Assembly (NCBI GenBank): GCA_015065105.1
Contig: SVQZ01000001.1
Coordinates: forward strand, 40,996 to 104,995
DNA from: Oscillospiraceae bacterium
GTDB lineage: Bacteria; Bacillota; Clostridia; Oscillospirales; CAG-272
DNA: 64,000 nt
Direction of reading: 5' to 3'
Shown: positions 6,488 through 52,242 of the stretch, in pieces
How the letters are laid out: each line of letters starts with the position of its first letter
Numbering within the stretch: position 1 is the stretch's first letter
Position numbers and translations under genes: made by a program
The notes under the pieces: model-generated
What the model was told of the DNA's origin: nothing
Seen by the model: only the letters and a program-made list of their open reading frames with translations
The model's database searches: none

Positions 6488-6660
6488 ACGTACCGTAATG
6501 GAAGCAGGTGAGAATCCTGCACGGGCACGCCGCCGTGAGGTGCGGGGTAAATTACCTAATATATATTTCTTCTATCCGATGCCGCAGTTCGGAGAAATGC
6601 CATTGTTTTTAATAATGAGAAGGCGGAGGAATATGCACCGAGTCGAAATACTTTACGCTA
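6488..6660 (+). ncRNA. cobalamin riboswitch
   Basis: GGAAGCAGGTGAGAATCCTGCACGG..CGCCGCCGTGA core; GCCCATTG...GAGAAGGC; GAGTCGAAATAC B12-box-like; upstream of ECF-type transporter genes. Confidence 0.85.
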
Positions 6661-11938: not shown

Positions 11939-11982
11939 ACTATATTTCTACAAGAATATACGTTATAATAGTAACATAATAA

Positions 11983-12065
11983 TCTTATCAAGAGCGGCGG
12001 AGGGACTGGCCCTGTGAAGCCCGGCAACCTGCATATGTAAGGTGCTAAATCCTGAGAGATGAGAG
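11983..12065 (+). ncRNA. SAM-I riboswitch (S-box), P4 apparently reduced
   Basis: CTTATCAAGAG.GG.GGAGGGACTGGCCC..TGAA.CCCGGCAACC...AAGGTGCTAAATCC...GATGAG upstream of metK. Confidence 0.95.
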
Positions 12066-49312: not shown

Positions 49313-50221
49313 TTACTTATTTATGGCAAGAGAAGCCGCGCCTAAAAGTCCCGCTTCGTATTTTAATGCGGTCAGCACTATTTCAGCGTTTTTATTAGGC
49401 GAGGAAAACGCCTCGTTTCTGAATGCTTTGTGTATATCCTCTTCCATAAGATCAAAGCTCTGCATAACTCCGCCGCCCAAAACATAACGTCGGAGATTCA
49501 ACAAACTTGCGGCACTTCCTAAGCCCTTTCCTATGTATTCGCCTGTCTTTTTAAATACTTCAACGGCAAGCTTTTCGCCGTTACGGGCACGCTTTGATAT
49601 TTCAAGCGCAGATATATTTTCTCCTGTAACAGCTTCATATCTGCGGGAAATAGCAGGGCCTGCCGCTACCCCCTCGACACAGCCTTTATGACCGCACGGG
49701 CACAAAGGACCGTTATCCTCTACTATAATATGACCTATTTCGCCTGCACCGCCGAATGCTCCGGAATAGACCTGTCCGTTAAGAACAAGTCCGCCGCCGA
49801 CACCGTTAGATACGGTTACCCACAAATAATCACTACAATCCTTACATATACCGAAAACACTTTCCGCATACGCGCAGGCATTAACGTCATTTTCAATATA
49901 TACCGAAAGACCAAGCTTTTCGGACATCCTCTCTGCTATAGGAAAATTACTTATACCGGAAAAGCAGGCATATACCCATATTCCGTTTTTCGGATCTGCA
50001 AGACCGGGTATAGTCATACCGCAGGAAACTGCTTTACATTCAGGATTTCTTTCTTTTAACAGAGTATATAGTTCAAGAATATACGATTCTATCGTTTCCT
50101 CTGTAAATTCCAAAGGAAAAATAAGCTTTTCCTTATCAATAATACTTCCCTTTTCATCAATAAAACCGCAAAGAAGCTTACTTCCTCCGATGTCACAGGC
50201 AAATATTACATCTTTTTTCAT
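49313..50221 (-). CDS. ROK family sugar kinase
   Basis: DIGGSK, ENDVNA, GVGGG, GEIGH, CPCGHKGCVE; no HTH. Confidence 0.9.
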   Translation of the reverse strand: MKKDVIFACDIGGSKLLCGFIDEKGSIIDKEKLIFPLEFTEETIESYILELYTLLKERNPECKAVSCGMTIPGLADPKNGIWVYACFSGISNFPIAERMSEKLGLSVYIENDVNACAYAESVFGICKDCSDYLWVTVSNGVGGGLVLNGQVYSGAFGGAGEIGHIIVEDNGPLCPCGHKGCVEGVAAGPAISRRYEAVTGENISALEISKRARNGEKLAVEVFKKTGEYIGKGLGSAASLLNLRRYVLGGGVMQSFDLMEEDIHKAFRNEAFSSPNKNAEIVLTALKYEAGLLGAASLAINK

Positions 50222-50378
50222 TTTATCACCGCCTTGGATCAATTATAGCATATATTAAAGCATTATGCAACATATTCCTTTCATATTACATTTTGAACAA
50301 AGCTGTAGGTGATTTAAGGTATAATATTTACATATGATGAAAAATCGAAAAATAAATAAAAAAAGTAAAAAAAAAGAC

Positions 50379-50407
50379 TTGACAAAATGATTTCTTTTTG
50401 GTATTAT
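50379..50407 (+). promoter_or_regulatory. strong sigma-A promoter of the tRNA, with A-rich UP element
   Basis: TTGACA-N17-TATTAT, TG extension, upstream A-tracts. Confidence 0.85.
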
Positions 50408-50422
50408 ATACGGGTAGTTGAT

Positions 50423-50498
<76 letters not shown>

Positions 50499-50499
50499 G

Positions 50500-50534
50500 A
50501 AAAAAGAGCAAGTTGAAAGACTTGCTCTTTTTTT
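50500..50534 (+). terminator. tRNA terminator
   Basis: AAAAAAGAGCAAGT...ACTTGCTCTTTTTTT. Confidence 0.9.
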
Positions 50535-50537
50535 GAC

Positions 50538-50709
50538 TAAGTTTGCCCTTACGGGCAAGTGAAGTTGACTTCGGCAGTGAAGTTACTGCGTAGTGAAGTT
50601 TGCTTCGCAAGTGTTTTTTTGGCAAACTTAACTTCACTTTGCGGTAAAACCGCAAAACTTCACTATGGCGTAAGCCATAACTTCACATCGGCTTTGCCGA
50701 TACTTCACT
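50538..50709. repeat. mirror-symmetric array of 9-bp repeats interspaced with mini-hairpins
   Basis: AGTGAAGTT at 50558, 50576, 50592; (A)ACTTCAC(T) at 50630, 50656, 50679, 50702; each spacer self-complementary. Confidence 0.9.
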
Positions 50710-50787
50710 TTTAATTTGTGATTGTGCTTGTTTGCATATAAGTACAATAAAGACAAAAAAGGACTTCATTTGAAGTCCTTTTGATTT

Positions 50788-50807
50788 ATAGAAATTGCTC
50801 CGCTTTT
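50788..50807 (+). repeat. minimal (ends-only) member of the terminator-docked repeat
   Basis: ATAGAAATTGCTCCGCTTTT directly after hairpin 50757-50782; resembles the left and right ends of copy A fused. Confidence 0.55.
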
Positions 50808-50808
50808 C

Positions 50809-52242
50809 TTATACTGATTTTATAATAGAACAAAGCAAACGGTAGGTCCGTTCTACCGAAGCTATCTCCATTCTTTCGTCGGGTGAATGAATATCAAGAA
50901 TATTCGGGCCTATCGAAATAATGTCGATGCCGGGGATTCTTGAGGATATAAGTCCACATTCGAGTCCTGCATGAAGTGCTTCGATCTTCGGCTTATATCC
51001 ATACTGTTCCTCAAATTTCTCGATATACAAATCTCGGAGCTTTGAATCTGCCTTATAGTCCCAGCCCGGATATCTGTCACAGGTAACGTATTCGCAATTT
51101 AAAAGCTTTGCTATACGGGAGAACTCAAGAACAGTTGAATCAATTTCGTATTCATTATTTGAACGAATAAGATGAACCGCCTTGAAGCAACCGTTTTCAG
51201 CCTTTACAATACCGAGATTGGAGGATGTTTGCACAAGACCCTCGATATGTCTTGACATTCTTAAAACACCGTTAGGCGCAATAAGGATCTCATTAATGAT
51301 TCTTGTGGTATCAGCAAAGCTGAACATATTGCCGATATGCTTGTTTTTTGATGTATAAAGCTTAAAAATCTTTTCGTCATTCGAGAAGATTTTTTTCTTT
51401 TCGCGGATATATTCGGTTATGATATCGTTATAAAGCTCGGTATCTGTTACTGAAATAACAGCACTTGTCTCTCTCGGGATAGCATTATCCTTTGTACCGC
51501 CTTCAAGAGTAACAAGATTAAAGGGTTCACGCTCATACATTTTAGCAAGAAGCTGCGCCATAATAACTATAGCGTTCTCCTTGCCGGTATTGATCTCAAC
51601 GCCCGAATGACCGCCCGAAAGACCCTTGATATCGATTCGCATAAGCTTATTCTTCTCGGATATTGCATCCGAGCTGAAGCTCATTTCAAGACGTACACCG
51701 CCCGCGCAGGAAACGAAGCTTATTCCCTCCTCTTCCGAATCGATATTGATCATAAGACGTGATTCTATATCCGAATAATCAAAGCCTATAGCACCTGTCA
51801 TTCCTACCTCTTCACCTGAGGTAAACAGACATTCAAGGTTAGGAAGTTCTTTATCATCGCTTGTAAGTAATGCAAGCATATAAGCCACGGCAACGCCGTC
51901 GTCGCCGCCGAGTGTTGTTCCCTTTGCCTTTATATAACCGTCCTCGGTATAAAGCTCGATTCCATCCTTTTCAAAATCGTGCTCTGTTCCGTTATTAGCC
52001 TGACATACCATATCTGTATGTCCCTGTAAAAGCAGAGTGGAAGCATCGCTTCTCACCGAGGGCTTTTTAACTAAAATATTATTATACCCGTCTCTTCTGT
52101 ATTTAAGGCCGTAATAATCAGCAACAGCGGCAATATAATCTACTACCGCTGTTTCGTTACCCGATCCACGGGGGATCGCTGATATTTCCTCAAAATACTT
52201 AAAGACTTGCTTGGGTTCGATATCCTTAAGTATATATTCCAT
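50809..52242 (-). CDS. pepD: aminoacyl-histidine dipeptidase (M20C)
   Basis: IPRGSGNE, LQGHTDMV, GTTLGGDDG, EEVGM, GGHSG, HAGLECG, IHSPDE. Confidence 0.92.
   Translation of the reverse strand: MEYILKDIEPKQVFKYFEEISAIPRGSGNETAVVDYIAAVADYYGLKYRRDGYNNILVKKPSVRSDASTLLLQGHTDMVCQANNGTEHDFEKDGIELYTEDGYIKAKGTTLGGDDGVAVAYMLALLTSDDKELPNLECLFTSGEEVGMTGAIGFDYSDIESRLMINIDSEEEGISFVSCAGGVRLEMSFSSDAISEKNKLMRIDIKGLSGGHSGVEINTGKENAIVIMAQLLAKMYEREPFNLVTLEGGTKDNAIPRETSAVISVTDTELYNDIITEYIREKKKIFSNDEKIFKLYTSKNKHIGNMFSFADTTRIINEILIAPNGVLRMSRHIEGLVQTSSNLGIVKAENGCFKAVHLIRSNNEYEIDSTVLEFSRIAKLLNCEYVTCDRYPGWDYKADSKLRDLYIEKFEEQYGYKPKIEALHAGLECGLISSRIPGIDIISIGPNILDIHSPDERMEIASVERTYRLLCSIIKSV

Follow-up and report, generated by a model that had tools for sequence, protein, structure and literature searches.

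The window analysed here is a 64,000-nucleotide (nt) stretch of DNA from the genome of an Oscillospiraceae bacterium, and our subject is the array of short hairpins and repeated linkers at positions 50538-50709 of it, downstream of a gene for a threonine transfer RNA (tRNA-Thr). We propose, with a probability of about 0.5, that this array belongs, as an orphan copy with no gene of its own, to a two-armed hairpin repeat that is widespread in gut Clostridia and acts as DNA, one arm of the repeat being listed in Rfam as the RNA Gut-1. Concerning the level of action we would give DNA slightly better than even odds, RNA a clearly smaller chance and anything else a small one, and with moderate confidence we favour a DNA element resembling repetitive extragenic palindromic sequences (REP) and bacterial interspersed mosaic elements (BIME) over a structured RNA. 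DNA is preferred because the stems are Watson-Crick paired with scarce G-T, because loops of 3 nt are common, and because C-GNA-G and C-GNNA-G loops lie opposite Rfam's strand.

The element consists of two opposed arms of mini-hairpins, with the linker AGTGAAGTT on the left and its complement on the right (Table 1). An earlier note, made from the letters alone, had described these arms, and the sequence is as described there, with three direct copies of the linker followed by complementary ones, namely two exact minus-strand copies of AGTGAAGTT and then two 8-nt copies. Its proposal that the word at 50538 can pair with the word at 50621 also stands, the 10-nt pair TAAGTTTGCC / GGCAAACTTA being 100% complementary. 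The linkers are separated by seven short self-complementary spacers, in line with its claim of a hairpin in almost every spacer, except that the stem of the second (GAC/GGC) has an A-G mismatch and needs linker bases for good pairing. Read on the minus strand, the loops of the distal arm are TTTTA, TTAC and AAA. Hairpin 4 and the T run at the centre make up a terminator-like site (50593-50608 plus the T run; terminator scan). The linker AGTGAAGTT occurs five times in the 64-kb window, all inside 107 nt; in 100 dinucleotide-preserving shuffles of the window it was found 0.61 times per window on average and three times at most, and none of the 100 reached five. A chance origin of the clustered copies is excluded.

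Other kinds of sequence were considered for 50538-50709. A coding region was rejected, and so was a plain tandem repeat: the sole call of Tandem Repeats Finder is 2.5 copies of a 16-nt period, in the left arm. Clustered regularly interspaced short palindromic repeats (CRISPR) were also rejected, as the repeats measure 7-9 nt instead of about 24-48 nt and every spacer is a self-complementary hairpin; the flanking genes (ROK, M20 peptidase and B12-binding protein) include no cas gene. The element is neither a CRISPR nor a simple tandem repeat, as had been stated before.

A scan of the window with the Rfam models placed Gut-1 (RF01706) at 50534-50604 on the plus strand (38.6 bits, E 5.2e-6). The match covers the full model (1-77 of 77), lays window hairpins 1-3 on the model's three short hairpins with their conserved UGAAAU-type linker, and aligns the model linker GUGAAAU to GUGAAGU in the window. 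The window copy thus shares with Gut-1 about three short hairpins, a (G)UGAAAU-type linker and an origin in gut Clostridia, and it differs in its own linker (AGUGAAGUU) and in its score, which lies below the gathering score of 50 bits; moreover, the Rfam model covers one arm only. The match to a described motif, albeit below the threshold, removes part of the novelty claimed for the element. In the accessible text of Weinberg et al. 2010 (PMC2864571), Gut-1 is rated RNA 'Y' and not cis-regulatory, with 43 representatives from the human gut only. It has also been used as a folding benchmark, and the accessible part of that work does not discuss its function. In a literature search, the supplementary Gut-1 notes of the authors aside, no mention in print was found of the second arm, the closing repeat, the locus-specific linkers, the context of tRNA and four-helix-bundle genes described below, or a DNA-hairpin loop signature of Gut-1.

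The genome from which the window derives (the own genome) contains 41 Gut-1 matches at E<=10, 16 of them over the cut-off, and none of 14 control genomes has a match over the cut-off. The matches are paired, a plus-strand match being followed by a minus-strand match about 100 nt on, and the members over the cut-off have the two-arm layout, the closing repeat and the terminator position of the window copy. The loci share the order terminator hairpin, CAAY, closing word, 3-4 linker-hairpin units, complement of the closing word, and second arm; the closing word doubles as the 5' arm of hairpin 1, and the second arm bears the complementary linker. By its alignment and layout the window copy is therefore a divergent member of the Gut-1 repeat population. 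The 6-mer logic that found the arrays upstream of four-helix-bundle genes (below) flagged only 26 regions in the whole 2.47-Mb genome. Unrelated repeats are also picked up by the 6-mer and 7-mer detectors, accounting by a rough count for about 11 of the 26 regions, and three own-genome regions were dropped by hand.

A scan for clustered repeats in the rest of the genome and in related metagenome-assembled genomes (MAGs) had been suggested, and the repeat proved to be multi-copy: Gut-1 matches occur in 41 of 61 related genomes (33 of them over the cut-off), with up to 51 per genome, and in all nine other genomes of the genus. Of 151 family genomes, 17 contain three spaced copies of GTGAAGT, as do 13 of 97 genera; the same pattern read in reverse, as a control, gave 2 hits. 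A stricter AGTGAAGTT-type pattern yields an estimated 2200 or so stretches in the species-representative collection, 127 of which make up the wide sample. Their hosts are mostly Clostridia MAGs from animal guts, among them Oscillospiraceae, Acutalibacteraceae, Christensenellaceae, Ruminococcus and Candidatus Scatosoma. At four loci of the sample (Butyrivibrio, Oribacterium, a Prevotellaceae MAG and a Vicinamibacterales MAG) the GTGAAGT repeats come without hairpins; these are unrelated and were left out of the hairpin counts. Two of these, L091 (Butyrivibrio sp.) and L157 (Oribacterium sp.), carry 4-8 GTGAAGT words 3-15 nt apart upstream of homologous genes, which is probably an unrelated operator-like site. 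(Here and below, L marks sampled loci, C contigs of the own genome and G related genomes.)

Across all DNA sampled, the repeating unit is a purine-rich linker of 7-9 nt followed by a short, almost perfectly Watson-Crick hairpin of free sequence, and an arm is a polar string of such units. The arms form 96 distinct convergent pairs, 11 pairs in reverse order and 108 single arms, some of the latter being cut by contig ends or having decayed partners. An inverted repeat of at least 8 nt connects the outer flank with the centre in 64 of the 96 convergent elements, as against 80 of 474 mismatched controls; this 10-12-nt repeat bounds the proximal arm only, its commonest form in the family is the window word TAAGTTTGCC(C), and the 3' arm of hairpin 1 recurs at the centre of copies. 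The linker is characteristic of the locus (GTGAAAT, ATGAAAT, ATGATAT or GTGAAGT, with further types upstream of four-helix-bundle genes), four heptamers are in use in the own genome, and in 10 of the 10 two-armed elements detected there the second-arm heptamer is the reverse complement of the first. Loop polarity is likewise mirrored between the two arms. By eye, hairpin modules recur across genera with different loops, arrays differ by whole units, and most array centres have no T run, the T7 of the window apart. In two crude open-frame tests no usable bias was seen in orientation relative to flanking genes; arm and flanking open frame (tRNAs included) were on the same strand in 24 cases and on opposite strands in 28, and 70 were ambiguous.

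Some individual copies depart from this layout. Reverse-order copies (C61:10440-10830, C61:8445-8599 and L060 in G004) have the ACATCAT-, ATATCAT- or ACTTCAC-type arm first, and their loop polarity flips along with the linker polarity; one of them lies behind tRNA-Cys and in front of a four-helix-bundle gene. At L176 a block of two units has been repeated until the array counts at least eight, with a gap of Ns from assembly within it; such arrays can behave like variable-number repeats.

The stems and loops bear on whether the repeat acts as DNA or as RNA. Between linkers of eight heptamer types we collected 565 distinct spacers, 443 of which are hairpins with at least four Watson-Crick pairs. 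Their stems contain 2440 Watson-Crick pairs (about 97%), 22 G-T, 33 A-C and 33 other combinations, wobble pairs making up about 1% on either strand. Loops of 3 nt (239) and 4 nt (139) prevail, and the closing pair is 5'-C...G-3' in 368 hairpins. On Rfam's strand the C-G-closed triloops are T.C in 108 and G.A in 4 of the 239, and the tetraloops T..C in 76 and G..A in none of the 139; the opposite strand therefore carries C-GNA-G and C-GNNA-G. The triloops on that strand read GAA (58), GCA (31), GTA (25) and GGA (6), and its GNNA loops are GNRA in 38 cases versus GNYA in 39, while Rfam's strand has one UNCG and no GNRA tetraloop. The forms GCGNAGC or GCGNNAGC occur in 82 of the 443 hairpins on the opposite strand versus 6 of the 443 on Rfam's strand. 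For background hairpins of the own genome, C-G-closed G.A or T.C loops account for 139 of 3208 triloops (4.3%) and 120 of 3257 tetraloops (3.7%). In the window itself five of the seven hairpins are of the C-GNA-G or C-GNNA-G form on the opposite strand. The strand is singled out by the loops only, not by the stems.

An RNA under selection is expected to tolerate G-U pairs and to favour UNCG or GNRA tetraloops. The stem and loop signature found here fits DNA and speaks against the structured RNA that had been offered as one option for the element. GCGNAGC and GCGNNAGC are the 'mini-hairpin DNA' of Hirao and colleagues. In the accessible portion of one source (PMC13037366), they are described as extraordinarily heat-stable, exonuclease-resistant DNA mini-hairpins with poor binding of single-strand-binding protein (SSB), found at the phage G4 origin, at the ssiA priming sites of RSF1010 and in N4 promoters; the stability of such mini-hairpins rests on the C-G closing pair, according to the part available of another (PMC3201870).

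The second line of evidence is genomic context. In the own genome an array lies within 100 nt behind 11 of 33 cluster-terminal tRNA or transfer-messenger RNA (tmRNA) genes, a test for association with tRNA 3' ends having been suggested in the earlier note. Among 51 distinct two-armed elements, a biased sample made up of the own genome and of loci picked as best Rfam or pattern hits, a tRNA or tmRNA 3' end within 90 nt points at the element in 29, and an outward four-helix-bundle gene lies within 160 nt of the other end in 10. The array at C35:33060-33100 lies behind a sequence that ends like a tRNA or tmRNA 3' end (GGAGTTCGAATCTCC...ACCAG) and is followed by a terminator, with no ARAGORN gene.

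More complete copies stand directly in front of the promoter of a TIGR02436 (Avd-like) gene, and by eye their last linker overlaps its -35 hexamer (TTGAAA or TTGAAT). The product of this four-helix-bundle gene scores 106 bits with TIGR02436 and matches PDB 2RLD, an uncharacterised protein, at E 2e-30. Nine PF05635 matches were found in the own genome, seven beside arrays and two beside other long palindromes near a tRNA or tRNA-like end. These two (C49:32290-32500 and C53:2600-2780) lie behind long polypurine/polypyrimidine inverted repeats, near tRNA-Leu or a tRNA-like 3' end, and a similar polypurine/polypyrimidine block is found behind tRNA-Thr in G008. Seen from the protein side, with 37 genes taken as the best hit per genome, a two-armed array lies within 320 nt upstream of 20 genes, a co-oriented tRNA within 400 nt of 16, and both accompany 11. 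Over the 61 genomes, Gut-1 and PF05635 occur together in 37, Gut-1 only in 4, PF05635 only in 3 and neither in 17; in a subset of one genome per family (24 genomes) the split is 10/2/2/10, with a hand-computed one-sided Fisher p of about 0.002. These tallies were made by hand, and related genomes are not independent, so they are indicative only. Among the papers listed in a search on 23S intervening sequence (IVS) and four-helix-bundle PF05635 proteins we found nothing on such arrays.

At the window locus the array begins 3 nt past the tRNA-Thr terminator hairpin, and a divergent ROK-family gene lies to the left of the tRNA gene. Consensus terminators at 50500-50533 and 50757-50782 bear out the position between two terminators given for it earlier. 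A promoter scan of 50250-50900 gave no more than two sites, the tRNA promoter and one within the peptidase gene; nothing promoter-like was seen from the tRNA terminator to the array or facing the array's right end. Among sequencing runs searched for window 50300-51300 no RNA set was listed, which bears neither way on expression. Two riboswitches elsewhere in the window reach their Rfam gathering scores, a S-adenosylmethionine (SAM) riboswitch at 11982-12065 (73.3 bits) and a cobalamin riboswitch aptamer at 6500-6651 (37.2 bits, partial model 47-167).

Table 1. Features of the array and its flanks, in window coordinates.
Feature	Position	Strand	Details
sigma-70-type tRNA promoter	50379..50407	+	TTGACA, 17 nt, TG-extended TATTAT; 11/12 consensus positions
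tRNA-Thr (GGT)	50423..50498	+	CCA encoded; ARAGORN; Rfam tRNA 72.1 bits
Bidirectional terminator-type hairpin	50500..50534	.	A6, GAGCAAGT, loop, ACTTGCTC, T7; 14-nt arms, 100% complementary
Outer arm X	50538..50547	+	TAAGTTTGCC; potential pairing partners: 3' arm of hairpin 1, or centre (50621-50630)
Proximal arm	50538..50613	+	four mini-hairpins, loops TTAC, TTC, TGC, TTC; three exact AGTGAAGTT linkers
Proximal arm start, hairpin 1	50544-50557	+	TAAGT, then TGCCC-TTAC-GGGCA
Linker, then hairpin 2	50558-50566 (linker)	+	AGTGAAGTT, then GAC-TTC-GGC
Linker, then hairpin 3	50576-50584 (linker)	+	AGTGAAGTT, then AC-TGC-GT
Linker, then hairpin 4	50592-50600 (linker)	+	AGTGAAGTT, then TGC-TTC-GCA, AGTG, T7 (50614-50620)
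Centre	50614..50630	+	T7, then GGCAAACTTA, complement of X
Distal arm	50630..50709	-	three mini-hairpins; four linkers, (A)GTGAAGT(T) on the minus strand
Distal linker, then hairpin	50630-50638 (linker)		AACTTCACT, then TTGCGG-TAAAA-CCGCAA
Distal linker, then hairpin	50656-50664 (linker)		AACTTCACT, then ATGGC-GTAA-GCCAT
Distal linker, then hairpin	50679-50686 (linker)		AACTTCAC, then ATCGGC-TTT-GCCGAT
Last distal linker	50702-50709		ACTTCACT
M20 peptidase terminator	50757..50782	-	11 pairs; bounds the intergenic region, outside the repeat
M20 peptidase gene	50809-52242	-	convergent; Pfam

On the reading that we favour, the array would fold when its DNA is negatively supercoiled or for a short time single-stranded, and the hairpins of the resulting block would be very stable, resistant to nucleases and poor substrates for SSB. 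So folded, the array may serve as a structural or boundary element of the REP/BIME-like kind beside stable-RNA genes, which are transcribed at very high levels, with the four-helix-bundle protein as its most likely protein partner.

Several results weigh against this reading, for the window copy and for the family. The window copy scores 38.6 bits, below the Gut-1 gathering score, its distal arm has no match to the Gut-1 model at E<=10, and no four-helix-bundle gene stands beside it. Adjacency to tRNA genes does not hold throughout: the 29 cases among 51 elements come from a biased set, and in the unselected wide sample a tRNA was present in the 300-400-nt flanks of 9 of 127 loci and a four-helix-bundle gene at 7 of 127, so that most members of the window's subtype are orphans at dispersed sites. 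The 22 G-T and 33 A-C pairs do not differ significantly (p = 0.18) and give no strand bias in the stems, and wobble pairs could be scarce also because palindromes undergo gene conversion or because transcripts of both strands are constrained. RNA folds of both window strands beat shuffles (z -5.2 and -7.0), a result that does not discriminate, because any palindromic array folds well. To this is added the RNA 'Y' rating by the authors of Gut-1 in the accessible text of their paper (PMC2864571). The role of the folded DNA (boundary, topology, priming or protein loading) is inferred.

The same material can be read, as a possible but tentative alternative, in terms of a mobile or recombining cassette. 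A selfish terminator-array block, with or without the four-helix-bundle gene, would land at or be copied to tRNA 3' ends and other hairpins, and the hairpins would be its ends or footprints without a host function; this is compatible with the DNA-hairpin reading. Behind the orthologous tRNA-Thr (GGT) gene of relatives, G007 has a homologous full array, G003 a stub only, G009 nothing, and G008 and G004 other sequence, although gene order differs too and no clean empty site can be aligned. The terminator and array are 98.5% identical behind tRNA-Ser(tga) and tRNA-Arg(ccg), the identity beginning 4 nt before the tRNA 3' end, and array-adjacent terminator hairpins are mutually related. At the centre the 3' arm of hairpin 1 is repeated, which resembles a target duplication. 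Copies are also seen at contig ends, and in four metagenome DNA contig sets the array is multi-copy in gut metagenomes and contigs break there, variants possibly coming from other loci; in run X1 the array has a depth of 3798 versus 17-21 in the flanking gene. At C49:102262-103420 four tandem arrays with alternating GTGAAAT and ATGATAT linker types follow tRNA-Trp, each unit preceded by a decayed tRNA-Trp 3' half (AGAGTTCGAGT...GCCCATAGCCAG) and a terminator of its own, which looks like accretion at a tRNA attachment site. Presence or absence between species, identical copies behind different tRNAs and these tandem cassettes suggest that the terminator-array block also spreads or is copied between sites.

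No spreading enzyme was found, however. Neither a transposase nor an integrase stands beside the copies inspected, and the link to RAYT/Y1 transposases that the earlier note suggested testing came to nothing: in the own genome PF01797 yielded a single weak match of 26 bits on contig C1 plus one under the cut-off, and no array lies near either. At E<=1e-3, a blastn search with 50499-50715 matched none of 50,697 phage and 72,556 plasmid records. Across genera, arrays are found with the same tRNA species (Trp, Tyr, Gln, Ser and Arg, and tmRNA), which instead fits long vertical retention.

Comparison with its relatives shows that the window locus, too, has been rearranged at the distal end of the array. 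In G003 (L048) tRNA-Thr is followed by the stub and then by the ROK-family gene, whereas in the own genome the ROK gene is inverted on the other side of the tRNA; the tRNA-Thr-array block (window 49313-50709) is thus inverted relative to this gene, and the breakpoint is at the -35 region supplied by the array stub in G003. A similar promoter stretch (TTTTATGCTATAAT...AGG.G.TGAT) lies downstream of tRNA-Thr, behind array, stub or other sequence, before different genes in G003, G007 and G008. In 5 of 7 relatives the gene that converges on the M20 peptidase gene is another one, identified as YbaK-like by eye only.

A structured RNA, which we regard as unlikely, would have each arm made as a small RNA or as tRNA read-through or 3' trailer, with linkers and hairpins that bind a protein or block exonucleases. 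It would account for the full-length match to Gut-1, though that is sub-threshold, for the authors' RNA rating and for the position of the proximal arm, which is on the tRNA strand 3 nt past a leaky-type terminator. Homologous copies show compensatory double changes (ATC/GAT versus ACC/GGT and ATGCC/GGCAT versus AAGCC/GGCTT; C50, C46 and C49), and both window strands fold better than shuffles. Single arms exist (108 distinct), and one such locus, L104, follows a TTGACA-N17-TATACA-like site picked by eye. On the other hand, Rfam's strand would have G-U at no more than 22 of its 2528 stem positions, loops of 3 nt prevail (239/443), and neither UNCG nor GNRA is preferred, with one UNCG and with GNRA as frequent as GNYA on the other strand (38 and 39). 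Neither arm in the window has a promoter-like site, most centres lack a T run, and arm orientation is unbiased relative to the flanking open frames.

Much less credible is the ladder envisaged in the earlier note, in which the left linkers of one RNA or single-stranded DNA pair with the right linkers in 9-bp helices joined by four-way junctions. Heptamers are reverse-complementary in all 10 own-genome two-armed elements detected despite the use of four heptamers, the G007 arms have changed together (all linkers being ATGATGT / ACATCAT instead of GTGAAGT / ACTTCAC) and so has the closing pair (GATGTTTGCC / GGCAAACATC), and the ladder forms in part in the minus-strand minimum-energy fold. The complementarity of the linkers nevertheless follows from the arms being the same polar unit in opposite orientation. 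The family does not require such helices, as arms also occur alone (108) or in reverse order (11, against 96 convergent pairs), the closing repeat encloses one arm only instead of zipping both (64/96 versus 80/474 controls), and mirrored loop polarity is expected of two copies of one polar unit and not of one continuous fold.

A double-stranded protein-binding platform of the iteron, operator or transposon-end kind, whose protein reads the linkers while the hairpins are incidental, is just as improbable: repeated 7-9-bp words, direct and then inverted, and the last linker over the -35 hexamer of the four-helix-bundle gene would suit it, but the linker word differs between loci of one genome, the window linkers are spaced 16 to 26 bp apart and out of helical phase, and a duplex-reading protein leaves unexplained why spacers are strongly constrained to polar-loop hairpins.

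Among known systems the DNA-hairpin repeat favoured here would work most like REP/BIME. In enterobacteria and pseudomonads, REP, BIME and REPIN (REP doublets forming hairpins) occur outside genes in many copies, as hairpin units that alternate in orientation, lie where transcription units end (3') and function as folded nucleic acid; the sequence of REP hairpins is conserved, and a RAYT transposase serves them. The present family is likewise extragenic, multi-copy and dispersed, with opposed units at transcription-unit ends, so that the label 'REP/BIME-like' is apt, whereas 'uncharacterised' was too strong. Unlike in REP, the hairpins are free in sequence (565 distinct spacers), conservation is confined to linkers and loop ends, the linker varies from locus to locus, and the own genome has no RAYT beside the arrays (only the PF01797 match elsewhere). 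By this comparison the likeness to REP/BIME stops short of the RAYT and of hairpin conservation.

A second likeness is to the mini-hairpin DNA signals, two of which RSF1010 carries on opposite strands. These signals (G4, RSF1010 ssiA/ssiB and N4 early promoters) have C-GNA-G or C-GNNA-G caps and are active in single-stranded or supercoiled DNA, and, as far as the available text of the source goes, they are single hairpins with a known enzyme, primase or N4 RNA polymerase (PMC13037366). The Gut-1-type repeat differs from them in forming arrays of 3-4 hairpins per arm in tens of copies per chromosome, and it is not known to be served by an enzyme.

The intervening sequences of 23S ribosomal RNA carry a four-helix-bundle open reading frame (PF05635 / TIGR02436), and Avd, the accessory protein of diversity-generating retroelements, belongs to the same family. 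Complete copies of the repeat resemble these intervening sequences in having the same protein family beside a stable-RNA gene and a long palindromic structure. They differ in that the gene is outside the palindrome and behind tRNA genes instead of in a 23S helix, and they have no reverse transcriptase in the neighbourhood.

The window copy is an ordinary orphan member, and its value lies in the family-level picture. Gut-1 has been in Rfam since 2010 as a gut-only RNA without an assigned function, and outside diversity-generating retroelements the TIGR02436 / 23S-IVS four-helix-bundle family has no explanation either. The Gut-1 motif is half of a dyad-organised element, is frequent downstream of stable-RNA genes and bears, opposite the annotated strand, the loop signature of extraordinarily stable DNA hairpins; the case is also a warning that hairpin covariation alone can misclassify DNA palindromes as RNAs. 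Position, and co-occurrence across genomes, link the Gut-1 arrays to four-helix-bundle genes and turn two orphans into a testable pair. A bolder version, which we consider rather doubtful, is that the Gut-1 'RNA' is no RNA but an arm of a new class of chromosomal DNA structure, with polar C-GNA-G mini-hairpin arrays that extrude or fold once the DNA is single-stranded, home to the 3' flank of tRNA and tmRNA genes and are read by a pentameric Avd-like four-helix-bundle protein. If true, this would supply both Gut-1 and the 23S-IVS protein family with a partner and a mechanism, such as SSB-free priming or loading sites or supercoil-sensing boundaries.

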